From Candidatus Kapaibacterium sp. (GTDB taxonomy: Bacteria; Bacteroidota; Ignavibacteria; Kapaibacteriales; UBA2268), in the NCBI GenBank assembly GCA_963665665.1, contig OY762428.1, positions 512,001 to 576,000 on the forward strand: DNA of 64,000 bases, written 5' to 3'. Below are positions 27,844 through 61,760 of this stretch, piece by piece. How positions within the stretch are numbered: the stretch's first letter is position 1; each line of letters starts with the position of its first letter. The position numbers and the translations under genes are program-made. A model generated the notes under the pieces. That model saw only the letters and a program-made list of their open reading frames with translations. It did no database searches and was not told where the DNA came from.

Positions 27844-28311
27844 TTAATCCTCTTCATCTTCAGGAATTTTGCAATCAATTTTCCTTTCTGCCGGAGGATT
27901 TTCAACTACAATTCTAACCATAAACGGGGAATTAGAAGCATTGCTGTGAATTGTAAAATCCACTATACGGTGATCCTTATCAAGGCCGTCCATATTTATT
28001 GTCATCTGTATTTTTCCCACTGACAAAGGAACAACATTAGAACTGAGAACTTTACCATTGGCACAGGAACAGGTAGCATCTATCTTTGTAATTTTTAAAA
28101 CGCCTCCACCCCTGTTCAAAACTTTAAAATCCTCCATGATGAATTGCCCTTCCGGGGCAGGAACAGTTAACACTGACGGTATAATATCAATTTCCGGTTT
28201 CAGTGTATCAGAATTTCCAGGTTTATCAATGAATAACTGGGCGTATGAAATATTCACAGAGGCAGCAAAAACCAAAATCGCGAAAAACAACTTTATCATT
28301 TCTGACCCCAT
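27844..28311 (-). CDS. DUF1573-like exported protein
   Basis: Signal peptide; FKVLNRG...LKITKIDATCSCA...IHSNA. Confidence 0.75.
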   Translation of the reverse strand: MGSEMIKLFFAILVFAASVNISYAQLFIDKPGNSDTLKPEIDIIPSVLTVPAPEGQFIMEDFKVLNRGGGVLKITKIDATCSCANGKVLSSNVVPLSVGKIQMTINMDGLDKDHRIVDFTIHSNASNSPFMVRIVVENPPAERKIDCKIPEDEED

Positions 28312-29045
28312 TTTATATCCAATACTTCATTAAAAGACCAAAAACCTGTTTTTCCGTGAAGCCACAATGCCGCTTCCACAGCACCGTCAGCAAAACCTCT
28401 GCGGTTTCGTGCCCTGTGTGTCAGTTCAATTGTATCAGCAAAGGAATCCAGGTATAGTGTATGAGTACCAGGAATTTCTCCGCCCCTTGACGAACTGATG
28501 TGCAATTGTTCCGGTTTGATAGCATCCCTCGCAGTATCGTCCAGAATAGTATTTTTAATACTGACTTCTTCAAGGATGATATTTCCCAGGCTTACAGCAG
28601 TGCCGCTCGGGCTGTCTTTCTTTCTGTGGTGGTGCATCTCATGGAGAAAAATATCATACCCGGAATTTTTATTCATCAGCGAGGATGCAAACCGGGCTAT
28701 TCTAAAAAACATCTGCATTCCAATTGAAAAGTTTGAACCCCAGACCAAACCCACACCGTTACTTACTACAATATTCTTCACCTCATCCATTTTATCATAC
28801 CATCCGGTAACGCCGACAACTATATTTTTTCCCATTTCGGCAAACAGCCTGATATTATCGACAGCCGTGTCGGGAATAGAAAAATCGATTACAACATCGA
28901 AATTATAATTTTTCTCTTTCACAGGAAGATTATCAATATCAAATTTTTCCGAAACCTCGATGTTTCTGTTTCGGGCAGATTGTTCAATTTCCCTGCCCAT
29001 TGTACCATAGCCGGAAATGGCAATTATCGGATTATGATTATTCAT
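28296..29045 (-). CDS. dapB: 4-hydroxy-tetrahydrodipicolinate reductase
   Basis: GYGTMG, IDFS, SNFSIG, EMHHHRKKDSPSGTA, HRARNRRGFADGA. Confidence 0.93.
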   Translation of the reverse strand: MNNHNPIIAISGYGTMGREIEQSARNRNIEVSEKFDIDNLPVKEKNYNFDVVIDFSIPDTAVDNIRLFAEMGKNIVVGVTGWYDKMDEVKNIVVSNGVGLVWGSNFSIGMQMFFRIARFASSLMNKNSGYDIFLHEMHHHRKKDSPSGTAVSLGNIILEEVSIKNTILDDTARDAIKPEQLHISSSRGGEIPGTHTLYLDSFADTIELTHRARNRRGFADGAVEAALWLHGKTGFWSFNEVLDIKWGQK

Positions 29046-29054
29046 GAGATAATT

Positions 29055-29738
29055 TTAACTGAATGAAACAATTGTATCTTTCTTTATAAGCCTGCCTTCG
29101 TTCAAAGATGCTCTTGCTGCATCAGGGAAAGCTTTCAGCAGGCTGGAGTCATTACTTGTTACTATCAGCGAGGCACCCCGATCCAATGCTTTGTGCATCA
29201 TTTCAAAGATAAGTGCTTTCGATCCTTCGTCCAGGTTTTCAGACGGCTCATCGGCAACAATTATTTCAGGATCATGAGCAAAAGCCCTTGCTGATGAAAG
29301 CATTTTCTTCTCGCCAATTGAAAGTTCATTCGGATATTTCGTCCTCAGGTAACTGATATTAAGCATTGCCATAGTTTCAAGGCATTTCCTGTGCGCCTCA
29401 TCTTTGGAATTTTTATTCAGAACAAGTGGCAGCATAACATTTTCGTAGCATGTAAGATGCGATATAAGCTGCGGGTACTGAAACATAATTCCGCTAATCT
29501 GCCGGAGTAGCTTCCTTTTCCTGCCTTTGAATTTTTTCATAGGCTCGCCCCTGAAGAAAATATCACCAAGGGTTGGCTTCAAATCCCCGTATAGTAATTT
29601 TAGCAGGGTGGTTTTACCGGCTCCTGTCTGCCCACTCAATATTGTTATATAATTTTCATTGATACTCAGGCTTACATTTTTCAATGCCGGAATATTTTTC
29701 TGAAATTGTACCGAAACACTCTGCAGGTCAAATAGCAT
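29055..29738 (-). CDS. FtsE-like ABC ATP-binding protein
   Basis: GQTGAGKTTLLK, LSIGE, ADEPSENLD. Confidence 0.75.
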   Translation of the reverse strand: MLFDLQSVSVQFQKNIPALKNVSLSINENYITILSGQTGAGKTTLLKLLYGDLKPTLGDIFFRGEPMKKFKGRKRKLLRQISGIMFQYPQLISHLTCYENVMLPLVLNKNSKDEAHRKCLETMAMLNISYLRTKYPNELSIGEKKMLSSARAFAHDPEIIVADEPSENLDEGSKALIFEMMHKALDRGASLIVTSNDSSLLKAFPDAARASLNEGRLIKKDTIVSFS

Positions 29739-30082
29739 CTGAATCCTGTTCAAAATATACACACAGCTATGATTACGAAAATAATGATTAACTAACAAAT
29801 ATTGATTATTTTATTTTTAATATATTTTAACAGGCCTTCGGTTAGGATGTGTTTTACAATTAATTCTGTCGTGATGTATTCACCTCCGATTTGTACAGCC
29901 CTTATGATTTACACTGCTAATTTATCATTTAATGCTTCTTTCTTTGAAAGAACCAATTGCCTTTATCATGAAATTTTGTATTTAATCCACAGGTTTCGAT
30001 ACAAGTCGGAAATTAACCCCTGATTATATTAAAAAATGATTTGAATTGAAAATATAAATTATTAACTTAATATGTTAAAATA

Positions 30083-32089
30083 TTGACAACAATTGCCAAA
30101 ACGGGGGGACGACGCTTGGGCAGCTTGATAAACAGATTATTTCCTGACATATCCAATCTACTTATTATCAGGATGGCGATAATTGCCGTCATATTATCAT
30201 TTTTCTTCTTTGATAATATCATGGCCTATGATATTATCAATGTGATTTATCCCGACGGTATGAAGAAGCAGATCCGTACTTCAGGCATGGTAAACGGAAA
30301 TTATATATCCCTGGAACAGGCTTGCGGGATTTTGTTTCCTAATAAGCAATGCAGCTATATCGATGGAAGTTTTATCGTCGGGCACTACAGGATAAAAACA
30401 ACCCCTTCCTCTTTTTTCATTCTGATCGAAAGTGATACAGCTGTTAAATTAGCCCAGATGGTGACGCCGGCAATTGATAACAAACGTGGCATCCACGTGC
30501 CTTATCCTGCTTTTTTCAGAGCTTTGAATGATATTGGATTCCTGAAAGCCGATTTTCAGAATAATGCTAAATCAATGGAGTTTGAATTTCTGCCTGAATA
30601 TAGATCAAAAAACAGATCCCGGGCAAATATTGATGAAAACAAATTGCCACTCAACCTGAGATTATTTGAAAAAGACCAGGAAGTATACGAAAAAGCCAGA
30701 CAGTACAATACACTGAAGCCAACTGAAATCAGAAATGATTCAATAAGCAAGCACGATATACCCGAACACAAACCGGCTAAAATCGAAAATCCAAACCCTG
30801 ATGACGAGAAAATATATATTTTACCCGGAAAGCTCCGCAGAAAGCACATTGACGAAAAAAAGAATGACACCAGCCAAAAAAGTGACTTCTTTCCGCAAAA
30901 AGATATTAGCTTCGAACCTCTTTTTTCAGGGCCTCCATCAGATGTGAATTTTATCAAAATCAAAGATATTTTTTCGGTGAACCAGAATGGAATGACTCAG
31001 GTTAATATTATATCCGACAAAACAATAGAACACTACCACAAACCGGAAATCAAGGACGGTGAATTGATAATCCGGCTTCCTTATGCAGTTAATACCATTA
31101 CAGATTTCAGCCGTGCGGAAATGATATATCCGTTAGATTCGGTGCATATAGAAATCATCAGGGAGTTCCTATTGTACAAATTTATCCTTAAAGGCAATGT
31201 AAATGCCATGAAGGTTTCCCGTGTAGCCCCTGACCATATCGTTTATTCCATTTTTCATGATAATAAGAAATTTCCTGAAAGCACTCCGAAGCCCGAGAAA
31301 ATTCGCCCCGAAAAACCTGATTCTTCCGGCAAAGTCAATATTATCCGGTCAAAAAAACAAAATGAGACTAAAAACCGCTGGGATCTGGATTGCATCGTGC
31401 TTGATCCGGGCCACGGCGGAAAAGACCCCGGAGCTATTGGTATTCACGGGTACAAGGAAAAAGAATATGCTCTGAAAATTGCCCTGAAACTCAGGGAACT
31501 AATCCAAAAAGGACTGCCCGGAACAAAAGTAGTTATGACCCGGGAAGACGATACATTTATTCCCCTTTATAAACGCGGGCAGATAGCCAATAAAGCCGGC
31601 GGCAAACTCTTTATCAGTATCCACCTGAACTCAATGCCGAAGAAACCTTGGCATTCAAACGGTTTCGAATCATATATATTACGTCCCGGAAGAAATGACG
31701 ACGCGGTAAGGGTTGCCAATAAAGAAAATGCCTCGATTAAATTTGAGCAGGACCAGACAAAATATAAAAAACTTACCGAAGAGGAAATAATTATTGCTAC
31801 CATGGCTCAGAGCGCCTTTGTTAAACTTAGCGAACAATTTGCCGTTGAATTACAGAAGGAAGTAGGCAACACAACTCCTTTGAAGGACAGGGGCGTTAAT
31901 CAGGCCGGATTTTACGTTTTGGTGGGAGCATCAATGCCAAATGTATTATTCGAAGCAGGGTTTCTTTCTAATTCAAAAGACGAGAAGTATATGGTAAGCA
32001 ATGAAGGAATAAACAACATAGCTCTTGGAATGTTCAATGCAATAAAAAATTATTCCGGTAAATATTCAGAACTAATTAACGGCAACTGA
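30083..32089 (+). CDS. N-acetylmuramoyl-L-alanine amidase (Amidase_3) with long N-terminal region
   Basis: LDPGHGGKDPGA, VVMTR, FISIHLNS, AGFYVLVGASMPNVLFEAGFLSN; start uncertain. Confidence 0.85.
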   Translation: MTTIAKTGGRRLGSLINRLFPDISNLLIIRMAIIAVILSFFFFDNIMAYDIINVIYPDGMKKQIRTSGMVNGNYISLEQACGILFPNKQCSYIDGSFIVGHYRIKTTPSSFFILIESDTAVKLAQMVTPAIDNKRGIHVPYPAFFRALNDIGFLKADFQNNAKSMEFEFLPEYRSKNRSRANIDENKLPLNLRLFEKDQEVYEKARQYNTLKPTEIRNDSISKHDIPEHKPAKIENPNPDDEKIYILPGKLRRKHIDEKKNDTSQKSDFFPQKDISFEPLFSGPPSDVNFIKIKDIFSVNQNGMTQVNIISDKTIEHYHKPEIKDGELIIRLPYAVNTITDFSRAEMIYPLDSVHIEIIREFLLYKFILKGNVNAMKVSRVAPDHIVYSIFHDNKKFPESTPKPEKIRPEKPDSSGKVNIIRSKKQNETKNRWDLDCIVLDPGHGGKDPGAIGIHGYKEKEYALKIALKLRELIQKGLPGTKVVMTREDDTFIPLYKRGQIANKAGGKLFISIHLNSMPKKPWHSNGFESYILRPGRNDDAVRVANKENASIKFEQDQTKYKKLTEEEIIIATMAQSAFVKLSEQFAVELQKEVGNTTPLKDRGVNQAGFYVLVGASMPNVLFEAGFLSNSKDEKYMVSNEGINNIALGMFNAIKNYSGKYSELINGN

Positions 32090-32959
32090 CGTTGAATCCT
32101 TTCCTGCTATCTTATTTTTCTCGGCATTGATCTTAAGATTATCCTTTCTGGTTAGCTGCCCGATTTTAAGATCGATTGGTTTCAGCTGCCTGAAAGGTAT
32201 TTGTAACCCATCCCCTACCGGATAACCACCTGGCCTTAGTATTGTATCCTGGTGAAGGAATATCCTGCATTTGTTTTTCAAGAAATGTTCCCCATTATAA
32301 AGATTAGTCAGCCGCTGCTCCAGGAGTTTGTGCTGCTGCCTGCTGTCTTTCATCAGGAAAATATCTTTATTGTGCCGGAAATCGCTTTTATCAGCAAAAG
32401 CAAATATCCTGGCAGGGATACTGTCATAAACCAATACAGGTGTTCCTCTGCTGACTCTTTGATACAAATCTTCACCATCCTCGCGGGAAATCCTGACACA
32501 TCCGTGTGATGTAGGCTTTACTCCAAGATGCCGGTAGTATGAATTTGTTGTCAGCCCGTGGAATCCAATATTCAGATTGAATCCAATCCACCATAGCAGT
32601 TTGCAATTGTTAAACTGGCGGGATTCGGCAGCTCTGGCCATCAGCTGTACGGTGTAAATACCCTCGCGTGTATCTACCCCCTTGCTTATTCTTGAAGTGC
32701 CTGAAGATATTTTGTAAGTAAATACACTATCGCCCCTGTAATGAAGAACCGCCTTCTGCTCATTAAGCGAAATGGAAATATACTTGTCGCTCAGGATATA
32801 AACCGTATCTCTGAGGGGAATAAATTCCAGTATATCCTTCTTATCTTCAAGAAAATCCTTATGAAAGCGCAAATAGTCCGGCCCCGAATAATCCCGGCCG
32901 GAAACACACAATCCGGAAATTATTATAACAAATGCCAATATGAAAATCTTCGTTTTCAT
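32072..32959 (-). CDS. L,D-transpeptidase (YkuD family)
   Basis: IGFHGL...SHGCVRIS; signal peptide from MKTKIFILAFV. Confidence 0.8.
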   Translation of the reverse strand: MKTKIFILAFVIIISGLCVSGRDYSGPDYLRFHKDFLEDKKDILEFIPLRDTVYILSDKYISISLNEQKAVLHYRGDSVFTYKISSGTSRISKGVDTREGIYTVQLMARAAESRQFNNCKLLWWIGFNLNIGFHGLTTNSYYRHLGVKPTSHGCVRISREDGEDLYQRVSRGTPVLVYDSIPARIFAFADKSDFRHNKDIFLMKDSRQQHKLLEQRLTNLYNGEHFLKNKCRIFLHQDTILRPGGYPVGDGLQIPFRQLKPIDLKIGQLTRKDNLKINAEKNKIAGKDSTSVAVN

Positions 32960-32963
32960 AATA

Positions 32964-33167
32964 TCAAATCTTACCCTGGCTAACAAGTTTTGCAAAATGT
33001 TCAAACGAACGGTCGTAAGTTCTTTCAGCATCATTCGGAAAAACACAGGCTGGTAATTGCCTGGATCGGACATGATATTTTATACAGTCGCAGCACATTC
33101 CTTTTCTGCTGCATGGCTCATAAGTACAGTTACAGATTTTCAGGTTCATTTCTTTCTTGCATTCCAT
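32964..33167 (-). CDS. DUF6485-like small Cys-rich protein
   Basis: [21 protein letters not shown]...LPACVF...ERTYDRS. Confidence 0.75.
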
Positions 33168-33660
33168 ATTCTTTCCTTGCATATAGTCCCTGTATTACCA
33201 TAAGTAATTTACAAAATTCAGAGAATATAAAGCAATTTATATACCAAAATATAATTCAATAAATACCTGTAGTACCTACAATCGCTATAAGCAATTAAGC
33301 AAAAATTTATGGAGAAACACCGAATCAACACTATGAAGAATTACTATTGTAACCTTTTCTTTAGCAAAGTGTAGTTTATAAAAATGAAAATTTTATCGAT
33401 TCAGGAGATAAATCACGTACTAATTCATTATGGAAATAATATTGTTGCTTTCTGATTGCAGGAATCATACAAGCCCAAAACGGGATTTTTTTTATTAATA
33501 CTTTACAAATACAATTAATGATATAATTTTTCACACAAAAAAAATCACTCAAAATAAGCCCGGGCATTTCTTACCTACAATTTACCCAAAACCAAATACC
33601 CCCTCCCGGGCTTAAATATTTCAATCATTGATTTTGATAATCCCCCCCTCAACGCTTCCC

Positions 33661-33774
33661 CCTCATTACGAACTTGTACTTGGTAATGCAGTTTTCTTTT
33701 GAATCTGAGCTTCTCTATTTCAAAGTAGTACTTTGCAGGAAATATTTCTTCCCAAGCGGGGGCTTGGGAAGGAG
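33661..33774. repeat. REP-like hairpin cassette (TTCCCAAG...CTTGGGAA / TTACCAAG...CTTGGTAA family)
   Basis: Reverse complement aligns along its length with 44851-44964. Confidence 0.7.
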
Positions 33775-33780
33775 GGAAAG

Positions 33781-34089
33781 ATTTTCTGCTATTTTGCATG
33801 GATTCTTCGATCGCTTCGCTCCGTCAGAATGACGGATGGGAATGTCCCCCGCTGGCGGGGGTGTCCGAAGGACGGGGGTGGATTTCCGGAAAATTCCCCT
33901 CGTTGAGGGGTGGCGAGCGCAGCGAGTCGGGGTGGATTCTTTTTCCGATTGAAGTTATTATAGTTGGCAGAAGTAGAATGTCATTCTGAGCGCCAGCGAA
34001 GAATCCATTCTTCATACATTATCTGCAAACAAAGATGGATTCTTCGGTCGCAAGCTCCGGAAGCCTGCCCCGACGTGTCGGGGAATGAC
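33781..34089. repeat. Cluster of REP-like hairpins (GTCATTCTGA...GAAGAATCC, CCCCTCGTTGAGGGG and CCCGACGTGTCGGG motifs)
   Basis: Segments are near-exact reverse complements of 61405-61494 and 61598-61651. Confidence 0.75.
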
Positions 34090-34289
34090 AACATAATACC
34101 TCCTTCTCCCGCCCTATCCCCCCGTTTTTCCACCCCAATTAACCAAGCACCGGACTTAATTCCCCATCCTGTGGTATCAATGAATCGAATAATTTCCTTA
34201 ATTCAATGCTGTTTTTAATCAAACCCCTGATGTTGGGGCTAATCGCTTTGTTGTCGGAGCTTTAAACTGTCTTGGCCGGAGTTATTGAA

Positions 34290-34607
34290 CTACTGTTTGG
34301 CCTTATTGTAGTGAAATTTGGCCTCATTGAACACTTGGTTGATCTTACTGAACACTTGGTTGATCTTACTGAACACTTGGTTGACCTTACTGAACACTTG
34401 GTTGACCTTACTGAACACTTGGTTGACCTTACTGAACACTTGGTTGGCCTTATTGAACACTTGGTTGACCTTATTGAACACTTGGTTGGCTTTACTAAAC
34501 ACTTGGTTGACTTTACTGAACACTTGGTTGGCTTTACTGAACACTTGGTTGATCTTACTGAACACTTGGTTGGCTTTACTGAACACTTGGTTGATCTTAC
34601 TGAACAT
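34290..34607 (-). CDS. Putative 105-aa heptad-repeat protein MFS-(K[VIA]NQVF[SN])13-EAKFHYNKAKQ
   Basis: GGAGG-8nt-ATG; start and stop positions conserved in the second copy; conservative heptad changes between copies. Confidence 0.45.
   Translation of the reverse strand: MFSKINQVFSKANQVFSKINQVFSKANQVFSKVNQVFSKANQVFNKVNQVFNKANQVFSKVNQVFSKVNQVFSKVNQVFSKINQVFSKINQVFNEAKFHYNKAKQ
34326..34598 (-). repeat. 21-nt tandem array A, 13 units (AAGGTCAACCAAGTGTTCAGT consensus on the minus strand)
   Basis: Counted directly; variation confined to a few positions. Confidence 0.95.
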
Positions 34608-34614
34608 GTTCTTT

Positions 34615-34971
34615 GCCTCCGACCAAGAGTTCAATGCCTTCAAACAAGGCAGCAATGACTTCGACCAAGGGGTCAATGACTTCAACCAAGGCATCATTAT
34701 CTTCAACCAAGGCATCAATAACTTCGACCAAGGTATCAATGACTCCGACCAAGGCATCAATGACTTCGAACAAGGCAGCAATGACTCCGACCAAGGCAGC
34801 AATAACTCCGACCAAGGCAGCAATGGCTCCGACCAAGGCAGCAATAACTCCGACCAAGGCAGCAATAACTCCGACCAAGGCAGCAATGACTCCGACCAAG
34901 GCGGCAATAACTCCGACCAAGGCGGCAATGACTCCGACCAAGGCATCAATAGATTCGACCAAGGCGTCAAT
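34615..34971 (+). repeat. 21-nt tandem array B, 17 units (GACTCCGACCAAGGCAGCAAT consensus); 2 further units at about 35119-35160
   Basis: Counted directly; related to array A but on the opposite strand. Confidence 0.9.
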
Positions 34972-34980
34972 AGATTCGAA

Positions 34981-35119
34981 CATTGGTGAAATGCCGCTGC
35001 CCCTTCCTACCTCCCCCCGGCCCCCTCCTTCGGAAGGAGGGGGAGTTAATCTTATGATATTTAACTTCTTATCCCCTCCTAATGTAGGAGGGGATTATAG
35101 GGGTGGTTTTCTTGCTTTG
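34981..35119. repeat. REPIN-like double hairpin (CCCCCTCCTTCGGAAGGAGGGGG...CCCCTCCT..AGGAGGGG)
   Basis: Near-identical reverse complement at 60522-60660. Confidence 0.8.
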
Positions 35120-35333
35120 ACTCCGACCAGGGCAGCAATAACTCCGACCAAAGCAGCATTATTTTTTAAACATTGGGAATATGTCGGGGAATGCGGGATT
35201 GAAGTATATTATAATTCGGACGGAGGAAAAATGATCATAACAATTCCGGGTAAAGGCACAGCCCTGCCTGAATAGTGTAATTATTACATATATTAAACCC
35301 GGAAAATAAAATCTGTTTGAAATTGTTGAGTGA

Positions 35334-36659
35334 TTAATATTCGGGATCACCCCCGAGTTTTTTAATCCACATCCTGACTTTTCCGGATAAAGAATCACGC
35401 TTTTGGTATCTCTTTAAAAATTCATTGAAATCGCGCACAGCATATAAATATTTTTCATCATGTTTGAATGCAATAGCCCGGTTCATATAAGTTCTGGGAT
35501 TATCCGGAAAAAGTTCTATTGCGAGGGTATAATCTTCGGCTGCTTTTTTATAATAGCGCATATTCATGAATATATTTCCGCGCGTTATATATGCCTGTAC
35601 AAATTTCGGATTAATTGTAATAGCCTTTGTAAGGTCATATATAGCTTCCTTATATCTGCTCATTCCTGCCTTTGCGTTTCCCCTGCCAAGAAAGGCAGCC
35701 GCAAGTTCAGGATTCAGTTCCAGTGCCTGGTCGTAATCCATAATTGCTTCAGCATATTTTTTCATAAATGTAAAAGCATTCCCCCTGTTATAGTAAAGAA
35801 CAGGGTTTTTGGGATTAATTGAAATTGCCTTGTCGTAATCAGTAATAGCGTTATCATAATCTTTTACAGTCAGATAGGATAGAGCCCTGTAATTATATAC
35901 CTCTACTGATTTTGGTTTGAGCTGGATTACCATGTTGAAATCCTGTATGGCTTCTTCATGCTTTTTCAACTTGCTAAGCACCATGCCACGGTAATTCAGC
36001 GCCATAACAGATTCCTTGTTCACTTCGATAGCCGAGGAATAATCTTTAACAGCTTCCTTAAGCTTGTCCATGTTGCCATAAGCAATACCTCTTGAAATAA
36101 AGGCTTTTTCGTGCTTTGGGTCCAACTGAATAACATGTGTAAAGTCATCAACAGCAAGCTGGAAATCTTTTTTATCAAAATAACAATTGCCCCGGTTAAG
36201 ATATGAAAGCAGATGCCCCGGGTTCAGATCGATAGAAGTATTAAAATCTTCAATAGCTTCATCAAAATTTCCCATTTCTTTCTTTGCCACTCCTCTTTTG
36301 TAATAGGCAAAGGAAAATTCTGAATTTTGTTCAATAGCAAGGGTCAGATCCTTAATAGCCCTTTGATATTTCCTCATATCAACAAGAACGCTTCCTCTTT
36401 TGAAATAGGCAAAGGAAAAGCTGCCGTTCAGAGTAATAGCATTATTGTAATCTGTAAGGGCTTCATTGAACATATTTAATTCATACAAAGAGTTTCCCCT
36501 TTTAAAATAAGCAAAGGAAGACCTCGGATTACGTTCTATGGCATTTGAATAGAACTCTACAGCTTTCTCAAACTCACCCTGTTCAAATTCCTGATCACCT
36601 TTTTCGACCCATTTTTCCGAAGAGTAATTCTCAACATTCGATTTTTCATCTGATTTCAC
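35334..36659 (-). CDS. Tetratricopeptide repeat protein
   Basis: About 12 TPR units (AYxxRG...AIxDYxxAIxLNP). Confidence 0.9.
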   Translation of the reverse strand: MKSDEKSNVENYSSEKWVEKGDQEFEQGEFEKAVEFYSNAIERNPRSSFAYFKRGNSLYELNMFNEALTDYNNAITLNGSFSFAYFKRGSVLVDMRKYQRAIKDLTLAIEQNSEFSFAYYKRGVAKKEMGNFDEAIEDFNTSIDLNPGHLLSYLNRGNCYFDKKDFQLAVDDFTHVIQLDPKHEKAFISRGIAYGNMDKLKEAVKDYSSAIEVNKESVMALNYRGMVLSKLKKHEEAIQDFNMVIQLKPKSVEVYNYRALSYLTVKDYDNAITDYDKAISINPKNPVLYYNRGNAFTFMKKYAEAIMDYDQALELNPELAAAFLGRGNAKAGMSRYKEAIYDLTKAITINPKFVQAYITRGNIFMNMRYYKKAAEDYTLAIELFPDNPRTYMNRAIAFKHDEKYLYAVRDFNEFLKRYQKRDSLSGKVRMWIKKLGGDPEY

Positions 36660-36788
36660 CTGCTCACCATCAAAAAATGATACAGCACTTTACTAATAAT
36701 GCATTAAATTTGTACTTAATAACATTCTTATTAAAATAAAAAAATTTGAATTGTTTTTGAAAGTATTATTCTTATCCGGGAAATTTTT

Positions 36789-37331
36789 ATGAAAGTTTTA
36801 GTTCCAATTGCAAACGGAACAGAGGAAATGGAAGCGGTAATAATCATCGATATGCTTAGAAGAGCAGGCATTGAAGTAGTTGTGGCCGGAACAGAAAATG
36901 AAGTATTATGTTCGCGCGGGGTTGTTTTGAAGCCGGACGTACTGATAGAGACAGTTTTAACCGAAAAATTCGATGCAATAATTATTCCCGGCGGATTGGA
37001 AGGAACGGAAAACCTTATTAATTCCGAACCGATGAAAGAAATTATTGAATATCACAAAAATAATAGTGGAATATTTGCTGCAATATGCGCCGCACCGTTG
37101 ATACTTGATGAAGCAGGATTATTTAGCGACAGTACTGAATTTACATCACACCCATCGGTAAAGGAAAAATTCAGCCATGGTTCATACCAGAATGATAAAG
37201 TTGTTATATCAAATAGCATTATTACATCTGCAGGTGCCGGAACTGCTTTTGATTTTGCTCTTGAAATTATTAAATTACTTACAGGCAGGGATATGGCAGA
37301 TAAAATTTCAAAATCAATTTTATACAGATGA
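36789..37331 (+). CDS. DJ-1/PfpI (YajL/ThiJ) family protein
   Basis: GTEEMEAV, IPGG, AAICAAP, ITSAGAGT. Confidence 0.9.
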   Translation: MKVLVPIANGTEEMEAVIIIDMLRRAGIEVVVAGTENEVLCSRGVVLKPDVLIETVLTEKFDAIIIPGGLEGTENLINSEPMKEIIEYHKNNSGIFAAICAAPLILDEAGLFSDSTEFTSHPSVKEKFSHGSYQNDKVVISNSIITSAGAGTAFDFALEIIKLLTGRDMADKISKSILYR

Positions 37332-37337
37332 AATAAT

Positions 37338-37613
37338 ATGAAAAAGATCAGAGCAGAATTTATCATCAGCGGACACGTTCAGGGCGTGGGTTTCAGGTAT
37401 TTTGTATATAGAAAAGCAGAACAGATAGGGCTTGAAGGATACGCCAGAAATCTTTATGACGGAACGGTAGAAGTTAAAGCAGAAGGCGGGGAAAATCTGA
37501 TAGCAGCTCTGAAACAGTATTTGGAACAGGGCCCTTCAAGATCAAGGGTTGATTCGTGTAAAGTAATTTTTTCCGATGCAACAGGCGAATTTAATGGATT
37601 TGGTATCAGATAA
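37338..37613 (+). CDS. acyP: Acylphosphatase
   Basis: GHVQGVGFR, GYARNLYDGTVEV, GPSRSRV. Confidence 0.9.
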   Translation: MKKIRAEFIISGHVQGVGFRYFVYRKAEQIGLEGYARNLYDGTVEVKAEGGENLIAALKQYLEQGPSRSRVDSCKVIFSDATGEFNGFGIR

Positions 37614-40335
37614 AAACAACTCATACATAATTACAAGATTTTTGATACTTATATCAGCAATCTTAATAATTTTGATTCCGGCAGAATCGTATTGTACCGG
37701 CATGAATGAAATTGAATTGTCTGTTGATAACACAACTGAATTCGACCAATTGGGATTCCGTCCTAAAATCGCACTTGTTCTTAGCGGAGGCGGCGCACGC
37801 GGCCTGGCTCATATCGGTGCTATCAGAAAACTGGAAGAAGCCGGAATAAAACCTGATTATATTGTTGCAACCAGTATGGGAGCCGTAATTGGCGGCTTAT
37901 ATGCTTCCGGATACAGTATTTCCGAGATTGATTCCACGATGCGCGCAACCGACTGGGACGGGATTCTGTCTGTAAGTGCCGGCAGTAACAGGAACAGGCT
38001 TTTCCTGGACCAGAAAGAAATGCAGGACAGAAGCCTTGTTACTCTGAGGTTCAAAAATTTTGAGTTTATAATTCCTGAGGCTGTTTCATTCGGCAATAAA
38101 TATATCGGGGTTTTGCAAAGAATGCTATGGAACAGTAAATACCACTGTAACGACAGTTTCGATTCTCTCAGGTATATCTTCAGGCCGGTTGTTACCGACC
38201 TTGTAAGTGGTAAATCAATATCGTTAGAAAAAGGGAACATGGTAAGAGCAATCAGGGCAAGTTCAACGTTCCCACTGCGCTTTCCGCCCGTCAGGGAAAA
38301 AGGAATGATACTTGTTGACGGCGGTATTCTTGCAAATCTGCCTGTTGATCACGCAAAAAAATTTAACCCGGATATAATTATTGCTGTGGATGTTAGTTCC
38401 CCCCTGAACAAAGAAACTGCCATTGATAACCCGCTTACAATTGCAGACCAGGTAATTTCACTTTCAATGAAAATCTTTTCTGATTCAGCAGCTAAACATG
38501 CAGATATTCTTATCAAACCGGATATTGGTACAATATCTAATCTGGAATTCAATAAAATCGACAGCCTGATATTGATGGGCGAGATTGCAACACAATCCGA
38601 ATTTTTTGATTTGAAGGAAATTATTAATAAAAAAACAAATTCAAATTTTCAGGATTATGTGTTGGCTACAGGGCTGTCTGAAATGATTGAAAAGGCTGAT
38701 ACTATTGTTTGCAGGGGCCTGAAGGACAAAGATGATAAATATTTTTGCTCTAAATTCAGAAAGTTTTCCGACAACAGGCAGGATGCCGTTAAAAAACTAT
38801 TACTTAATTTTCCACGATATAGAAAAGTCTTATTAAGTTATAACAAATTAAATAATTCAATTCACCTTGAAGCCAGGCAGTTCCACAAAGTTGATTCTAT
38901 CATTGTAAATTTTGAAAACCGCAGTATTACAAAGAAAATCATTGAATTATTCGACAATCAACTAAAGAACAAAGAATTCGATCCATACAGAAAAAAGAAA
39001 CTCGAAGAATCTGTTTTGAATTTGCTACGCGAAAATGATTATTCGTTTGCATCAATAACGGAGTTTTATTCAGACAGTATTGGTGGTAATATACATTTAT
39101 CACTGGATGCCGGCAGACTGAAACACATAATTATAAAAGGAAATGAAGAAACTCCTGAATTCATGGTTTTACGAGAGCTATTATTGAAAGAAGGGGATAT
39201 AATAACTGCCGACCGATTAGTTGAATCATGGTATAACTTAATCAGCACAGGTTTATACAGCGATGTACAATTCAAAGTTGATTGCAGCAACGAAATTACA
39301 GATAAAATTTTAATAATATCGGTTAAGGAAAGAGGGTCTCAGATGATATCCATCGGAGCTTCTACCGATAACGAAAGAAAACTGAAATTCGGGCTGGACC
39401 TTATCCAGGAAAACCTGATGAATCTTGGCAGCAGGCTTTCTATGCGGCTTGTAGCCGGAGACAGAGACCAGAAAGTGAACCTGATGCTGAGCATTCCACG
39501 TATATTCAGTACTCTTTTTACATCCAGGATATCGGGTTATGCCGAAAGAAAAGAATATTATGAATATAAAACAGTAACTGAAATACCGACAAATGACTAT
39601 AGGAAAGAAGAATCAGGTGAATTTTCCGAGGAAAGGTACGGCTTTAAAGCTGCTGCCGGAACAAGAATTCAAAAGAACGGTATATTCGATATCGAACTCA
39701 GGCTTGAAAAGCAAAGATTTTACAATCTGGCCCAGAGGATTGTTCCTGAATTCTATGCACTTTCCACAATAAAAGTAAAAACATTGTTTGATTCCGAAGA
39801 TGACAGTTATTTTCCGAGGGAAGGAAGGCTATTAAAAATCTCTCTTGAATCTACGATTTATCGTGAAAGCAGTTCTTCTGGTTTTTCAAAAGCAGAATAT
39901 TATCATGCCAATAATTACTCTTTTGGTGATAATACAATAAGAAGCAGCATATTCTTTGGTTATGCCGATAAAACACTTCCCGTTCCTGAATTTTTCAGTA
40001 TTGGCGGTATTGATGATTTCTTCGGCTTCAGGGAGGACGAATCAAGAGGAAGGCAAAAGATAAGAGCCTCACTCGAATATCGCCGATTAATGCCGTTTCA
40101 GTTGTTTTTTGATACTTATATGTCCCTTCGGTATGATATTGGCTCTGTTTGGACAAACCCGGAATCAATTCAGATAAATGACCTCAAACACGGAGTCGGT
40201 TTCAAAATAGCTTTTGATACACCGCTCGGACCTGCAAGTTTTGCTACCGGGAAAAGCTTCTTTTTCCTGAAGAACCCTTTTGCAATGGGCTGGGGGGAAA
40301 CAAAAATGTATTTCAGCATTGGCCTGAAAATGTAA
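37576..40335 (+). CDS. Patatin-like phospholipase fused to POTRA and Omp85 barrel (PlpD / type Vd-like)
   Basis: LSGGGARGLAHIG, ATSMG, LVDGG; POTRA-like IKGNEET...RELLLKEG; DTPLGP...YFSIG C-terminus; start uncertain. Confidence 0.8.
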   Translation: MQQANLMDLVSDKNNSYIITRFLILISAILIILIPAESYCTGMNEIELSVDNTTEFDQLGFRPKIALVLSGGGARGLAHIGAIRKLEEAGIKPDYIVATSMGAVIGGLYASGYSISEIDSTMRATDWDGILSVSAGSNRNRLFLDQKEMQDRSLVTLRFKNFEFIIPEAVSFGNKYIGVLQRMLWNSKYHCNDSFDSLRYIFRPVVTDLVSGKSISLEKGNMVRAIRASSTFPLRFPPVREKGMILVDGGILANLPVDHAKKFNPDIIIAVDVSSPLNKETAIDNPLTIADQVISLSMKIFSDSAAKHADILIKPDIGTISNLEFNKIDSLILMGEIATQSEFFDLKEIINKKTNSNFQDYVLATGLSEMIEKADTIVCRGLKDKDDKYFCSKFRKFSDNRQDAVKKLLLNFPRYRKVLLSYNKLNNSIHLEARQFHKVDSIIVNFENRSITKKIIELFDNQLKNKEFDPYRKKKLEESVLNLLRENDYSFASITEFYSDSIGGNIHLSLDAGRLKHIIIKGNEETPEFMVLRELLLKEGDIITADRLVESWYNLISTGLYSDVQFKVDCSNEITDKILIISVKERGSQMISIGASTDNERKLKFGLDLIQENLMNLGSRLSMRLVAGDRDQKVNLMLSIPRIFSTLFTSRISGYAERKEYYEYKTVTEIPTNDYRKEESGEFSEERYGFKAAAGTRIQKNGIFDIELRLEKQRFYNLAQRIVPEFYALSTIKVKTLFDSEDDSYFPREGRLLKISLESTIYRESSSSGFSKAEYYHANNYSFGDNTIRSSIFFGYADKTLPVPEFFSIGGIDDFFGFREDESRGRQKIRASLEYRRLMPFQLFFDTYMSLRYDIGSVWTNPESIQINDLKHGVGFKIAFDTPLGPASFATGKSFFFLKNPFAMGWGETKMYFSIGLKM

Positions 40336-44801: not shown

Positions 44802-44964
44802 CCTCCCCCGGCCTGGCGGCCACCCCCTCGTTGAGAGGGACAGTTTCGATCCTCCTTCCCAAGTTGCACTTGGTAAGGAACATTTCCTGCAAAGTTATAC
44901 TTTGGAATTCCGAAGCTAAGCTTCACAAGAAATTGAAATTACCAAGTACAACTTGGTAATAAGG
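44802..44964. repeat. REP-like hairpin cluster between convergent genes
   Basis: CCCTCGTTGAGAGGG hairpin plus a cassette homologous to 33661-33774. Confidence 0.7.
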
Positions 44965-53717: not shown

Positions 53718-54329
53718 TTGTTCAGAAACTTTGAAAAATATAGAGACGACGTTTTGGTTGATATTATGAAAGGCAGGGATAAGCAGAAAGCTTCCCTTGC
53801 ATTCAATGAATTATATAGAAGATATTCTCCTACTGTTAATGCCTATTGCACCAAAGTCATGCACAACAAACAATTGGCCGAAGATCTTTTTCAGGAATGC
53901 TTCACAAGGTTTTATAAATATATTCATGCCAATAATCCGAAAACAAATCTTTCGGCATACCTTATTACTATCGCCAGAAACCTTGCTCTTAACCACAAAA
54001 GAGACAGCAAACCAACTGTATCGATAGAGGAAATTGATTTCGACTATTTTCAGAATCCGAATTACGAGAAAAAGGAATTACTGGATTTGATTGATATGGC
54101 ATTGGAATTGCTTGATCACGAATACCGTGAGGCTTTTGTTCTCAGGGAATATAATAATTTATCCTACAGGGAAATTGCCGGTATCATGAATATTTCCGAG
54201 GTCAACGCCCGTTCAAGGGCTTTCAGGGCCAAGCAAAAGATAAAACAGATATTGGCCCCCTATCTGGAAGAATATAATGAAAAAAAAAATAAAGAAGAGT
54301 TATTAGAGAAAAAACATGGACATAAATAG
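53718..54329 (+). CDS. ECF RNA polymerase sigma factor
   Basis: AFNELYRRY, AEDLFQECF, YLITIARN, LSYREIA...SRAFRAK. Confidence 0.9.
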   Translation: MFRNFEKYRDDVLVDIMKGRDKQKASLAFNELYRRYSPTVNAYCTKVMHNKQLAEDLFQECFTRFYKYIHANNPKTNLSAYLITIARNLALNHKRDSKPTVSIEEIDFDYFQNPNYEKKELLDLIDMALELLDHEYREAFVLREYNNLSYREIAGIMNISEVNARSRAFRAKQKIKQILAPYLEEYNEKKNKEELLEKKHGHK

Positions 54330-55467
54330 ACTAATTCACGACTTTGCTGACGGTACGCTACCTCCGGAGTATGAAGAAAAATTATTTATTACTCTTAGTT
54401 CCTCACCCGAATTAAGAAATGAGCTAAAGAGTTCCATGGCTCTGACCAATGCTGTTAAATCAGACACGAAGGCATTCACGCCATCTGCCTCTTCGAAATC
54501 AGCTATTTTTTCAAATGTCGGCCTTGATGTTCCACAAGCTGTTACTCCAATTTCATACGCAATGAATAAATTTATTTACGGAACTGCCGGTGTTGGTATC
54601 GGAGCGATAACTGTATTTTTACTAATGTATTCCAGTGTGTTCGATAGCACGGAAAATTTCGATCAGGCAATGATGAGCACAGGACTTGCCAGCCGGGATT
54701 ATCCTGACAAACCGGAATTGGTTATGGAATGTTCTGCGCCGCTTATCACTGATACAGTTACCAAATACGTTTATTTATATCCTGAAGCATTTCAACATGC
54801 AGATTATGCATCTTCAGAAATTATTGATCAAACAAAGCCGCTTGTTTCGCCTTATTATAACCTGACGATCCCTTCCCGTTTCGAAAGTTATACTCCAAAT
54901 CCGCAAATAAGTTATATTAGCGATAATAGCGGATTCAATAGTTCATTCATATATGATGTAATTCAACCGGAAAAACCAATAGGAATAACTCTTGAATTTG
55001 CATCCAATCAGGCCTGGGATTTCCCGGCAGCTACAATTACCCCGGAATCTTTCCAGCCATTTAATAAATTAAGCATGACTGTATTCGGATGGGAGCCTAT
55101 TAAAGGACTGAACTTCGGAGTTGATTTCAGAAGAGAGAACTTCTACCAGGAATTCGACGGTATACGCCAGGACAGCCTGGAATTTGCTTACGCCCAGCAA
55201 CCTAACTTCACATCCTACGGTGTTGTTGCAAGGTATTTCCCTGAATTTCTGAAGACTGAAAAAATTAAACCTTTTGTCCAGATTGGCGCTGCAATGAATA
55301 AGGCCGGGGCAATAGCAAGGGGTATGGGTGGTATATGGTACAAAATTGACGACCATATATCATTTTCTCTCGGGCTTGAAGGCAATATTCTGTATTTCAG
55401 GCATCAGGATAAAAATTTCCACTCAAAGAAAATGAATCTGAACTATGGTATATCTTATGAATTTTAA
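54316..55467 (+). CDS. Putative anti-sigma factor with TM helix and C-terminal outer-membrane beta-barrel
   Basis: Coupled to the ECF gene; N-terminal LIHDFADGTL; TM at about aa 86-109; amphipathic strands ending NYGISYEF. Confidence 0.65.
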   Translation: MDINRLIHDFADGTLPPEYEEKLFITLSSSPELRNELKSSMALTNAVKSDTKAFTPSASSKSAIFSNVGLDVPQAVTPISYAMNKFIYGTAGVGIGAITVFLLMYSSVFDSTENFDQAMMSTGLASRDYPDKPELVMECSAPLITDTVTKYVYLYPEAFQHADYASSEIIDQTKPLVSPYYNLTIPSRFESYTPNPQISYISDNSGFNSSFIYDVIQPEKPIGITLEFASNQAWDFPAATITPESFQPFNKLSMTVFGWEPIKGLNFGVDFRRENFYQEFDGIRQDSLEFAYAQQPNFTSYGVVARYFPEFLKTEKIKPFVQIGAAMNKAGAIARGMGGIWYKIDDHISFSLGLEGNILYFRHQDKNFHSKKMNLNYGISYEF

Positions 55468-56155
55468 AACAACAATAATATTGATTTTTTCCATTCTGAT
55501 GCTTTTGATCTTATCGTCATCATGTGAGGATTCGCTCGGGCTTGAAGACAATTACAGGGAATGGCAAATTAACGTGGAACCCGAAGTGATAGATACCACC
55601 ATGCCAATGGAAATAATATCATTCGAGAGCAGCTTCACGGAATATTACCCGTCGAATATTGACGATACATCATTTATAGAATATCCCTGGGGTATCAATA
55701 TCAGCAGCAGGTCATTTATCTGGGTATCTGCCGATTCGCTGCATGGTGAATATTATGTATCGTTATTCATGAACGTTACCGATAATACATCCAACGATTA
55801 TCATAGAGACCGTATTGACAGGATTACCAATCTTTCAATATCTGTTGATTCAATTCATGCAATAAAAACAGACAAACCTGATACTTTGAAATATAAATCA
55901 ATGTGGTCCGGGATTTATGACGGCAGATACAGCAGTGTTACTGTTGAAAGCATTCAGGAACCTAAAACTATCCAGTATTATTCTTATATGACAAAAAGAA
56001 CTTCCGTAAAAGCTTATCGTATTAAGCGCGATATTGAAATTGACGGGAAAATTGAGAACAGGGAAGTAATTGAATTTAAAATATTCGTCTATTTCTACAG
56101 TACTGATCCTGTAACAACCAAGATGCTTATCGGCACAATAACTGTTCTTGTTTGA
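55445..56155 (+). CDS. Hypothetical lipoprotein
   Basis: Hydrophobic N-terminus with LSSSC lipobox. Confidence 0.7.
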   Translation: MVYLMNFKTTIILIFSILMLLILSSSCEDSLGLEDNYREWQINVEPEVIDTTMPMEIISFESSFTEYYPSNIDDTSFIEYPWGINISSRSFIWVSADSLHGEYYVSLFMNVTDNTSNDYHRDRIDRITNLSISVDSIHAIKTDKPDTLKYKSMWSGIYDGRYSSVTVESIQEPKTIQYYSYMTKRTSVKAYRIKRDIEIDGKIENREVIEFKIFVYFYSTDPVTTKMLIGTITVLV

Positions 56156-56197
56156 TATCAAAATAATAATTTATGCAGAGTAAAAAAACTCTGCAGA

Positions 56198-59100
56198 TCA
56201 ATCCTGCTTATCCAGAACTCTTTTTATTTCGTTCAGAAACTGAGGCAGAACAAGCGGCTTGTCGATCCTGCCAACAAAACCATATTTCTCATAATTTGCA
56301 ACAATTGGTTTGTTTGAATGCCCGCTGAATACAAGTGCCTTTATTTCCGGATTAATTTTCTTCAAATCACATAGTACGTCCGAACCATCCACAGAATATC
56401 CCCTTAATGTCAGATCCAGAATTACTAGGTTGAAATCATCCGGATTTTCGGAATATATCTTTCTTACTTTTTCGGGTGTATTTGCACATACAAGGTCAAT
56501 ATCAAATTCATCAGACAGCTCTTTCATATTTTCCAGAATTTCCTCGTTATCGTCAAGGATAAGAATTTTCGTTGATATATGATCGCCATTATTGCCGGAA
56601 CTTACAGCAGATTTTCCGCTAATTGATTTATTGTATGGCAGAAGGATAGTGAAAGTTGTACCTATTCCAACTTTGGAGTCAACTTTAATCGTTCCTTTAT
56701 GCTTTTCAATTATCGACAAAGCAGAAGCAAGCCCAAGGCCATGCCCGTTCTCTTTTGTTGTAAAGAAGGGATTGAATATTTTGTCAATAATTGATTTTGG
56801 TATACCCATTCCTTCATCAATTATATCAATACTAATATATTGGTCATTACTTTTATCTTTAGCAAATAAATTATCAGAAACCATCTGTTTCGTTGTAATT
56901 GTAATTTTTCCGCCTTTGCTCATAGAATGCTTGGCATTAAGAATAAGATTTGTAATTACCTCGTGTATCTGTTTGTCATCAATTAAAATATCCGACAAAT
57001 CCGGGTCCAGGTCATATTCGATAACAATACTCGAGCCTGTAATGGCCATTTCAGAAGAATCTCTGATAATTTTATTTATATCCGATGACCTCATTATGGG
57101 GGCATCACTTTTGGTAAAAGTCTGGAATTTTGTTGCCAGCGCTGTAGCCTGCTCTATTGTTTTTGATATTTTATCAAGATGGTGGGCAACTCTGTGGGGT
57201 TTCATTTTTGCAAGTTCAACACTCAGGGACATAGCAGTCATCAGATTTTTGAAATTATGGGCAATTCCCCCTGCTACAATACCAAGGGATTCGATCTTTG
57301 CTAATTTTTCAAGTTCGGCTTCTGTTTGTTTCTTTTCTGTAACATCATAATAATTAACAACTATTCCCTGAAGTTCAGGCATGTGCAAAAGATTTTTACC
57401 CGTACCTTCCAGGTATCTGTATTCACCGCTTTTGTTCAAATATCTGAACAAAAGATTTTCGATACCGCCAGGCCTGTTCAGTAGACCATTGAACTGAGCC
57501 AGCAATCCCTTCTGGTCGTCAGGATGAACGTAATCAAAAGCATTTTTTCCCATTAATTCCCCTGTATCATATCCAAGAACAGATTGATGCGAAGGGCTCT
57601 CATAAATAATATTTCCTTCGGCATCAAGCATGGATATCACATCGGTGGAATTTTCAATCAGAGTCCTGTAATAAATCTCGCTCTCTTCAATTCTTTTATA
57701 AGCTTCGCTGAGTTTTGAATTTCTTTCTTCAAGCTGTTTCCTGTATTCAATTATATCCGTTACATCATCAAATATTGCAACGATTTCGCCTGTGGGCAAT
57801 TTATATATATAATTTTCGCGCCAGCCTTCTCTTATGGCATCCTTATAGAAAAATGGTTCAAGTTTTTTATCCCTGCCGCTTTCGTAAACTTCCTGCAAAG
57901 CTTTGAAAAGCGGAGCTTCACCCATATTCGGGAACAATTCAAGTAAAGTTTTACCAATTACATCTTCATACCTGGAATTGGTTATTTCCTCTGCTTTTTT
58001 ATTGAAACCGGTAAATTTAAAATCTTTGGTGTTATTGACGGGTTTATATACAGCCACACCGCTTTTCATATTTTCAATTATCTTTTTGTAGCGGTGGCGG
58101 CTTCTCGCCAGCCTATCCCTGTTCCGAACAAAGGTTAACGACATAGCAGCCAAATCGCCAAAAGCTCCTGCTATTTCTGCATCCCTTTCAGTAAAATCTC
58201 CGTCCTTGTTTGCCATGCCGAGCAAGCCTACTGATTTATCATCAATAACGAGCGGGGCAAACATTACATTTCTAAGATATACATGCCCCTCCGGCATATA
58301 TTTTTCCCACTTGCTGTTAGCAAAGTCATTTTCATAAGCAACGGAATTTGTTCTGTATGCAGTTTCCCTTAAGCCGCGTATGGGCATGGGAAGTTCCGGG
58401 TTGACAGTACATGGCAGGCCTCCGGCTTCGAGGAAAAGTACTTCGTTTTCAGCGCCGTCATCCGAAAGCATTGCCACATAGCCTGATTTCGCACCTATCA
58501 GCTCACAGCAAATATCGAAGAGTGTTTTTGCAGCTTCTTCAAAGCTCTTTGCAACTGGAATTGCCTTTGAGGCCTTCAGCAGCAGGCTTATTTCTTTTTG
58601 TTTTTCTTTGGCTTTCTTCAGGGCAGCTGTCACTTTCTTTTCGGACAACTTACGGTCAGTTATGTCCTTTGAAATTATCTGCGCCCCTATCACTTTGTTA
58701 TTAAATCCCCTGACGGAACAAATACTTGAAAGATAATAATAATCTTTTCCGTCAACAGTTATTTTGTCTTCATAATCCTTTATCCCATCGTTTTCAACAG
58801 CAATTCGGATTCTTTTTTCATATTTCTTTCCTTCTTCCTCACCGAATACTTCACGAAGAGTTTTGCCGGTAAAATCACCGGGGCTGCCGTTAAGATTGGC
58901 AGCTGCAATTTTGTTAAATGCAATGATCTTTGCATCCTTAGTATAATAGCCTATACCAAGGCCGGCGTTTTCGAAAAGTAATCTGTGCTTTTCCTCGCTT
59001 CTTTTTAACTCTTCTTTGTCCTTAATGCTGTCATCAATGTTTATTGAAATCCCGGTCCATATTGTTCTGCCGTCGGGCATTCTTTCCGGAATAGAGCGGG

Positions 59101-60247: not shown

Positions 60248-60521
60248 CCCGATAGTTACAACCCGATAAATAGTAGTTTAAAAGAATTTAATTTTCTTTT
60301 GAGTAATATAGTAAAAATATCAATAAATTAAAAAGGGTTCGAAAAATAAATAACAACCCCCGATAGAAATGTTCTCCCGGATAATCCGGGGCAGCAAAAA
60401 GTGAAAAAACTGCCTGTCCGCAACGTTTTCTTCTTCAATCCTGCAAACCTTCGGAAGGTTTGTATTCAAATTCAATATCCACGTGCTCTATCTCGTGGAT
60501 AAGGGAGGCAAAGCCCCGAAG

Positions 60522-60660
60522 CAAAGAAAGAAAACCACCCCTGTATTCCCCTCCTCCCCGAGGAGGGGATAAGAAGTTAAATATCATAGAATTAACTCCC
60601 CCTCCTTTCGAAGGAGGGGGCCGGAGTGAGGTAGGAAGAGGCGGAAGCAAAGCACCAAAG
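60522..60660. repeat. REPIN-like double hairpin
   Basis: Reverse complement of 34981-35119. Confidence 0.8.
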
Positions 60661-60732
60661 TTTTAACCTATTGCCGCCTTATTCTTCTTCAAAGCCCGCC
60701 CCTTCGGGGAGGGTTTGGGAGGGGTCGATGCC

Positions 60733-60963
60733 ATTGCAGTAATGTTTTGCTTTATTGACGCCTTGGTTGAAGTCATTGATGCCTTGTTCGGAGTCATTGC
60801 CGCCTTGTTTGAAGATAATGAACTCTTGTTTGAAGCTATTGCACCGATGTTTGAAGCTATTGCACCGATGTTTGAAGATAATGAACTCTTGGTCGACACT
60901 ATTGCAGCAATGTTTTGCTTTATTGCTGCCTTGTTTGAAGGCATTGAACTCTTGGTCGGAGGC
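60733..60963 (-). repeat. Degenerate 21-nt array B of copy 2 (11 units)
   Basis: Heptads ASDQEFN/AFKQGSN/KAKHCCN/.../DFNQGVN/KAKHYCN on the minus strand. Confidence 0.8.
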
Positions 60964-60970
60964 AAAGAAC

Positions 60971-61204
60971 ATGTTCAATAAGGCCAAACAAGCGTGGGAT
61001 AATGTCAAACAAGCGTGGGATGAAGTCAAACAAGCGTGGGATGAAGTCAAACAAGCGTGGGATGAAACCAAACAAGCGTGGGATGAAACCAAACAAGCGT
61101 GGGATGAAGTCAAACAAGCGTGGGATGAAGTCAAACAAGCGTGGGATGAAGTCAAACAAGCGTGGGATGAAGCCAAATTTCACTACAATAAGGCCAAACA
61201 GTAG
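60971..61204 (+). CDS. Putative 77-aa heptad-repeat protein MFN-(x[VTA]KQAWD)9-EAKFHYNKAKQ
   Basis: GGAGG-8nt-ATG; termini match those of 34290-34607. Confidence 0.45.
   Translation: MFNKAKQAWDNVKQAWDEVKQAWDEVKQAWDETKQAWDETKQAWDEVKQAWDEVKQAWDEVKQAWDEAKFHYNKAKQ
60980..61168 (+). repeat. 21-nt tandem array A of copy 2, 9 units (GAAGTCAAACAAGCGTGGGAT)
   Basis: Counted directly. Confidence 0.95.
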
Positions 61205-61404
61205 TTCAATACCTCCGGCCAAGGCAGTTTAAAGCCCTGCTAACAAAGCAATTAGCCCAAACATCAGTATTCTGATTCAAAACAGCATTGAATTAAGGAA
61301 ATTATCCGGTTCATTGAAACCACCGGATGGGGAATTAAGGCCGGCGGCCTGTTCATTTGGGTGGAAGAACGGATAAACTGAGCAAAAGAATGAGGTGTTA
61401 TGTT

Positions 61405-61744: not shown

Positions 61745-61760
61745 AGTTTGTAAAATTTCT

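Follow-up and report, generated by a model that had tools for sequence, protein, structure and literature searches.

Two blocks of 21-nt repeats lie in inverted orientation within the window, by which we mean the whole 64,000-nucleotide stretch of DNA that was analysed, and they raise the question of what kind of element they represent and where it came from. To our knowledge, bacterial tandem repeats of constant 21-bp length have no accepted origin or function. Here, in three genomes belonging to one order, the source of 21-bp repeats could be traced to the block upstream of genes of a single uncharacterised family. This provides a likely parent and a candidate protein partner for otherwise unexplained repeats, and makes an open description testable.

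Layout of the two copies in the window

Both loci present the order REP cluster, tail, array A, core, array B and REP, in inverted relative orientation, as described in an earlier note made from the letters alone. Copy 1 starts with a mosaic left cluster of three REP types (33661–34085, plus strand), each found at 63–153 loci genome-wide, and its last arm is fused to the tail (34086–34327, plus strand). The tail is conserved and, judging from its periodicity and its lack of codon-position bias, appears to be a non-coding, decayed part of the 21-nt lattice. Array A follows with 13 units of 21 nt (34322–34594, plus strand), then the core (34601–34656, plus strand), which consists of a 10-bp palindromic junction (34602–34611) and the first array-B units. 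Array B itself, the mirror homologue of array A, counts about 17 units of 21 nt (34612–34980, minus strand). The right REP doublet (35001–35119, plus strand) is 88–96% identical to repeats around a trio of DUF559 genes (C1:1354482–1356506), and two more array-B units lie past it (35120–35165, minus strand).

Copy 2 comprises a left REP cluster (61409–61675, minus strand), a tail (61167–61408, minus strand), an array A of 9 units of 21 nt whose unit type is common to at least six other loci (60985–61177, minus strand), a core (60922–60977, minus strand) with its palindromic junction at 60967–60976, an array B of mixed units (60640–60965, plus strand) and a right REP doublet of the DUF559-flank type (60466–60639, minus strand). 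A hairpin embedded in this array B (60693–60727) also flanks a DUF559 gene at C1:2708335. Our comparison agreed with the figures given before: the cores are identical at 56 of 56 positions, the tails align without gaps with 39 mismatches in 242 nt, and the arrays A differ by locus in unit type as well as number (13 against 9). Neither locus carries an enzyme-like ORF, the ORFs present being heptad read-throughs of the arrays. Copy 1 has a YkuD transpeptidase and a TPR protein as neighbours, copy 2 a PAS histidine kinase and NuoC. At 44851–44964 of the window stands a solitary, diverged (78%) REP of the first left-cluster type, with neither tail nor arrays.

A larger segmental duplication had been named as the observation that would undo this reading. 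BLAST of window positions 28001–40000 against 54001–64000 gave no match outside the element, and because the flanks of the two copies share no match, we do not consider the pair a segmental duplication. An assembly artefact is also unlikely. Short-read contigs from four runs, representing at most two samples, reach into the element from both unique flanks, no single record spanning the locus, and the second sample shows SNPs in the flanks with the element at the identical site. In run X1, the summed depth rises from about 40 in the flanks to 400–4700 over the element. None of these contig records is listed as RNA.

A family of 53 copies and its modules

The source genome consists of one contig (C1) of 5.46 Mb, with 38.6% G+C and 99.5% completeness. 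Two copies within 64 kb had suggested that more exist genome-wide, and we indeed found 53 tail matches of 80–100% identity, with an array A of 5–34 units (median 12) behind every one of them. The description as a family of non-autonomous elements is thus upheld: the copies are dispersed and non-coding and must rely on functions supplied in trans. To the left of the tail, 52 of 53 copies have a REP at no more than 450 bp, and in 45 the tail is fused to one and the same REP arm. This arm carries a TGTC-type tag, a variant of the CGTC REP families (PMC3733652). REP doublets and mosaics make up the flanks of the element, not the lattice between them.

The centre of the element proved more variable than the window copies indicate. 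The core has 26 genome-wide matches of 48–56 nt, and four junction types share the 53 copies: the window core (26), an AT island of about 570 bp with 17% G+C (14), and two further types, both short (9 and 4). A small dyad is present in all three short types. The central core first described is only the point where arrays A and B meet, followed by the opening units of B, and it is one of four such junctions among the copies. The arrays, which had been called divergent, do lie on opposite strands; array B is, however, a mirror homologue of array A, with agreement at 14 of 21 consensus positions in a hand comparison. Arrays A and B draw units from a shared pool. We did not retain the idea of a fixed scaffold with a locus-specific repeat payload, given that 536 of 689 array-A units recur verbatim at more than one locus and that the core is found in 26 of 53 copies. 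These units run head-to-tail, and the unique spacers of CRISPR-like arrays are not seen. Nor did we find support for a repeat-generating cassette: a search for reverse transcriptase (PF00078) gave no match in the genome, its control matching in 3 of 14 genomes.

Tail and island both lie on the 21-nt lattice, and the self-identity of the tail is 0.38 and 0.39 at periods 21 and 42, compared with 0.18–0.32 at other periods. Conservation of the tail is equal over the three codon positions (0.90, 0.90 and 0.89) and the variable positions of array A are spread evenly over them; we therefore read the element as non-coding. The tail was also considered as a gene remnant and this was rejected, as there is no codon bias and a six-frame profile search of the genome gave no match (outside the gene, the best were at E ≥0.37). 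Promoters and terminators in the element show no excess over shuffles. No empty site was seen, and the tail was absent from all 40 relatives searched. On a tree of 51 tails (two truncated ones excluded), which is short and poorly supported, the junction type requires 19 changes, for a minimum of 3 and a shuffled mean of 22.6, which points to module exchange between copies.

A search for an enzyme-linked copy had been proposed. The linked gene we found encodes a helical protein with FN3 domains and no recognisable catalytic domain, and DUF559 genes are linked through the right REP. One copy (E16) lies between the 416-aa paralogue of the helical gene and the DUF559 trio flanked by the element's right REP, and another (E46) lies directly behind a copy of the 304-aa gene. 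Neither window copy has a BLAST match to the RAYT locus (C1:1821300–1822700), the DUF559 flanks being matched instead, and neither matches the flanks of the tandem GIY-YIG genes. From these links, DUF559 would be the best-linked candidate nuclease acting in trans. A search for IS91-type transposases gave no match, but its control was likewise silent. As side observations, the three DUF559 genes are arranged in tandem, each embedded in right-end REP arrays (the first corresponds to L017:3983–4384), and two tandem 84-aa GIY-YIG genes at C1:1891150–1892300 are interleaved with repeated tRNA-like fragments.

A helical gene family with upstream arrays

The helical+FN3 gene of 304 aa is present in six dispersed copies (C1:4944127, 4924663, 3454397, 4629096, 164771 and 860840), 90–98% identical and one of them internally deleted, together with two longer paralogues of 416 and 429 aa. 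Four full-length copies differ by 17–25 synonymous and 6–13 non-synonymous codons, and the gene copies are under purifying selection. The protein is predicted, at pLDDT 96, to form long helices at residues 14–209 followed by an FN3 domain at residues 220–304. A fold search with the helical domain returned no clear known fold (best Z 9.2, among generic bundles) and no viral match under E 0.4, while full-length structure searches returned only FN3. PQLLE_fam (NCBIfam NF052641) is matched weakly by 30 of 63 homologues, with a best E of 1e-9, and the four scores inspected lie far under its 80-bit cut-off; the two long paralogues score 34 and 22.5 bits, and the 304-aa protein has no match. Named relatives of the protein belong to Ca. 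Kapabacteria and Bacteroidota. Proteins of the family are mostly acidic (median pI 4.9), which does not suggest DNA binding. Two of the 304-aa gene copies are interrupted by a two-ORF insertion sequence, IS3-like in look.

We then analysed the regions upstream of 42 homologous ORFs, 9 of which were excluded for having less than 300 bp of upstream sequence. A clear array (period 20–22 or 41–42 nt, within 700 bp) precedes 22 of the remaining 33 genes, compared with none of 30 neighbour ORFs and 11 of 1200 ORFs drawn at random from this genome; this count is based on five metagenome loci plus relatives, and the loci are not independent because many come from two genomes. The other 11 genes show no clear array, an assembly gap being present at one of them. 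Units of the gene-linked arrays vary between loci. We describe a widespread cassette in which a phased array of about 21 bp and a leader rich in AT precede a gene whose distantly PQLLE-like product is a long helical bundle carrying 0–2 FN3 domains. Genome G018 has about ten paralogues of about 406 aa (L040, L064–L068, L070, L072, L073 and L075), most of them preceded by their own distinct 21-bp array.

The link between cassette and element comes from the AT island. The leader of the 304-aa gene is conserved over about 850 bp and begins in REP clusters, and the long-form island has weak BLAST matches about 450 bp upstream of the gene in the six dispersed copies. We also found eight free-standing AT islands of about 570 bp (C1:1194081, 2032544, 2358448, 2399604, 2666431, 5074631, 3765293 and 1732911), which contain a motif of about 23 bp and neither a homogeneous array nor a gene. 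They are homologous to both the long-form spacer and the gene leaders. A profile of seven of these orphan islands, run against 601 AT-rich segments, gave as its best matches 8 orphan islands, 16 long-form spacers and 6 gene leaders, the last at E 6e-13 to 6e-11; the remainder of the 55 best matches fall on the opposite strand at the same loci. Reciprocally, a profile of five leaders gave 25 matches (6 leaders, 16 spacers and 3 islands), weak outside the leaders (E 4e-5 to 0.12). All these profile matches concern an AT-rich module and carry large composition corrections, and the six leaders count as one event because they are near-copies.

The motif of about 23 bp is common to islands and leaders (29 matches), with an alignment score of 66 compared with a mean of 33 and a maximum of 50 for shuffles. 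In all 14 long copies, its position agrees exactly with the 21-nt register of arrays A and B. The start codon of the gene lies 406 bp past the motif, about 30 bp short of the point at which array B starts in the long form. Both window copies are devoid of the island. A tail profile matched three divergent islands and no gene leader. The units of arrays A and B show no significant likeness to any of 22 gene-linked units from other loci (best uncorrected p 0.023), and 13 nt that array A has in common with the L021 array were discarded as not significant after 23 comparisons. The motif was further considered as an array unit, for which it is weak under the unit weight matrix, and as a site conserved across taxa, for which GTDB contigs yielded 12 scattered exact matches, about the chance level. 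In 129 genomes of the family, short AT-rich matches to it were present in three.

Loss of the gene from such a block has several precedents. A second family of 21-nt arrays in this genome, family 2, occupies 29 loci (for example C1:2118176–2119905 and 4735498–4736755). One copy precedes the intact 429-aa helical+FN3 gene and 20 others match the leader of that gene. In a consensus of 14 copies, 46 of the first 68 coding bases match, in frame from the start codon; taken singly, 8 of 14 remnants beat the best of 60 random controls. From this alignment, family-2 copies appear to keep the leader, the start codon and about 22 decayed codons of the paralogue. Several copies have ISL3 ends, with both ends on one copy. 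Only 1 of 29 loci is near the REPs of the element, and 21 of 29 share the same orientation relative to replication. In G018, one array and leader copy follows its gene-linked counterpart at 83% up to the RBS and continues with no gene; a second copy is the array alone. In genome G033, which belongs to another family, a gene-less block brings together an array from one gene leader and units from another, along with a dyad junction and inverted related units. Related sequence is present on nine contigs besides the gene-linked one; the gene was found at none of five distinct loci examined, and the mirror layout was read in three. These multicopy gene-less mirror arrays are located at L098:1427–1900 (G033:C94) and L101–L105, and have the same architecture as the window elements, built from other sequences. 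Solitary 21-nt arrays with other unit sequences were also seen outside the loci of both families (C1:501028, 2447549, 3702332 and 5413704).

Origin of the element and its relation to known repeats

We interpret the element, with moderate confidence, as derived from the array and helical gene cassette: its upstream block, folded back and without the gene, would have spread among REP clusters. Helical genes carry an upstream array of about 21 bp in many genomes and, by homology, the long-form AT island also precedes the six dispersed gene copies here. Starting from such a block, we infer that an inverted copy of the array replaced the gene, and that loss of the island at small dyads produced the short forms, including both window copies. 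The block would then have become joined to a REP arm and, through nuclease-assisted recombination or gene conversion, have reached further REP clusters, with DUF559, RAYT or GIY-YIG enzymes acting in trans and no cut-and-paste step, while modules were swapped between copies. In REPtrons, the enzyme is considered to move the REPs and not the REPtron as a whole (PMC6006769). The proposed descent of the 53-copy family from a gene leader is based on the AT-rich island. The same kind of block would have been amplified by two routes in this genome, between ISL3 ends in family 2 and inside REP clusters in the 53-copy family.

The role of the array is the weakest part of this scheme. Twenty-one bp correspond to two helical turns, and the array might serve at the DNA level as a helically phased binding lattice, with the product of the adjacent gene as first candidate binder; that the protein binds the lattice is speculative. 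A stronger version holds that, in a so far undescribed class of dispersed elements, the array and helical/FN3 gene represent the autonomous form, whose protein acts in trans as a lattice-binding polymer, recruits a nuclease or organises DNA, and thereby drives the repeated birth and amplification of gene-less fold-backs. We consider this version doubtful; if true, it would account for many unexplained constant-length 21/42-bp satellites of Bacteroidota-related bacteria.

Similarly unlikely, in our opinion, is that the roughly 90 gene-less blocks are functional rather than passengers, as selected chromosome-wide binding sites for chromosome organisation or titration, on whose 21-bp lattices a helical+FN3 or host nucleoid protein polymerises. 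Each unit does have two conserved patches, spaced by about one helical turn and separated by variable bases, the register is kept across the island in all 14 long copies, the gene copies are under purifying selection, and orphan blocks recur in two other genomes (G018 and G033). Descent combined with unit-wise slippage also gives a fixed register, however, and this explanation has to accommodate a family without replichore bias (22 of 53 copies), a tail missing from the 40 relatives searched, and a mostly acidic protein with no known DNA-binding fold.

An independent lineage-specific 21-nt satellite, which expanded in REP clusters, happened to acquire the AT island and does not descend from a gene cassette, seems to us less likely still. 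Satellites of constant 20–21-nt size and variable sequence are common in bacteria (PMC8161180), and neither the tail nor the units match gene leaders. The specific homology of the island argues against this, as does the route from leader to orphan, which was taken three times (family 2, G018 and G033). We also find improbable a MITE of the BrickBuilt type, that is, a minisatellite between insertion-sequence ends moved by the cognate transposase. The leader-repeats-tail layout and the copy number are like those of BrickBuilt (PMC4596501), and the sister family 2 carries ISL3 ends; ISL3 ends are nonetheless found at 0 of 53 loci of the element. Its outer ends vary, with no fixed terminal repeats, and the mean longest direct repeat, measured on approximate ends set by k-mer multiplicity, is 5.36 for true end pairs and 5.12 for mismatched ones, which gives no sign of target duplications. 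A role as structured RNA, or as a store of heptad peptides, is very improbable, since the better folding of the strand compared with shuffles (z −5.1, DNA parameters, 20 shuffles) is predicted by mirror arrays alone, Rfam gave three chance-level matches with none near threshold, and the frame that stays open across array A, in 52 of 53 copies, has its variable positions spread evenly over the codon, shows no start signal and would encode peptides of sharply different chemistry between unit types.

Under the favoured derivation from the cassette, the element is akin to known dispersed minisatellite elements, with the addition of a probable parent cassette. The following comparisons refer to the cited sources as far as their text was available. 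Like BrickBuilt and MITEPgRS/464 of Porphyromonas gingivalis, which have repeats of 23 and 41 nt (PMC4596501), the element is intergenic, multicopy, species-specific and non-coding, and joins a conserved flank to variable-number tandem repeats. The features of a MITE are thus present in part: a multicopy, intergenic, non-coding sequence with an internal minisatellite. Unlike BrickBuilt as described there, it has two mirror arrays, its ends lie within REPs and it can be linked to a gene leader, while the search for ISL3 ends gave no terminal inverted repeats and no target duplications were seen; family 2 with its ISL3 ends fits the BrickBuilt type well (PMC4596501). With the constant-size 20–21-nt bacterial repeats (PMC8161180) it shares the 21-nt period, the variable sequence, a short conserved motif, the restriction to one species or lineage and the absence of coding; it differs from them, as described, in the mirror architecture, the conserved tail and island, and the parent gene.

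The mosaic REP flanks and the TGTC-type tag on the left arm recall REP, BIME and REPIN sequences and REPtrons (PMC3116915, PMC6006769, PMC3733652), and, as in REPtrons, the REP families here surround candidate cognate enzyme genes. In contrast to these REP systems as presented in the same sources, the 0.5–1.3-kb lattice between the REPs is not REP, the left and right REPs belong to different families, and the window copies match the flanks of DUF559 rather than RAYT genes. PARCELs (PMC2996958) are likewise tandem repeats that are dispersed, show dyad symmetry and contain open frames, but they are described as 25-codon repeats inside ORFs, whereas the element has a 21-nt period, is intergenic and shows no codon-position bias or other coding signature.

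On the protein side, the linked genes resemble the PQLLE family (NF052641)/DUF6261, a helical protein of about 215 aa, in having a helical domain of about 210 aa and a phased upstream array. They score 34 instead of 80 bits and most of them add FN3 domains, and the element itself, unlike PQLLE, is gene-less, mirrored and amplified. In a literature search, with most subscription papers and all supplements outside its reach, we found neither the element nor the array and gene pairing described.

Finally, related tyrosine-recombinase genes lie directly to the right of two copies, E01 and E06 (C1:98470–99774 and 626269–627606), and the repeated DNA of these copies ends in the same sequence. These loci are possibly integrative elements that captured or targeted the element.
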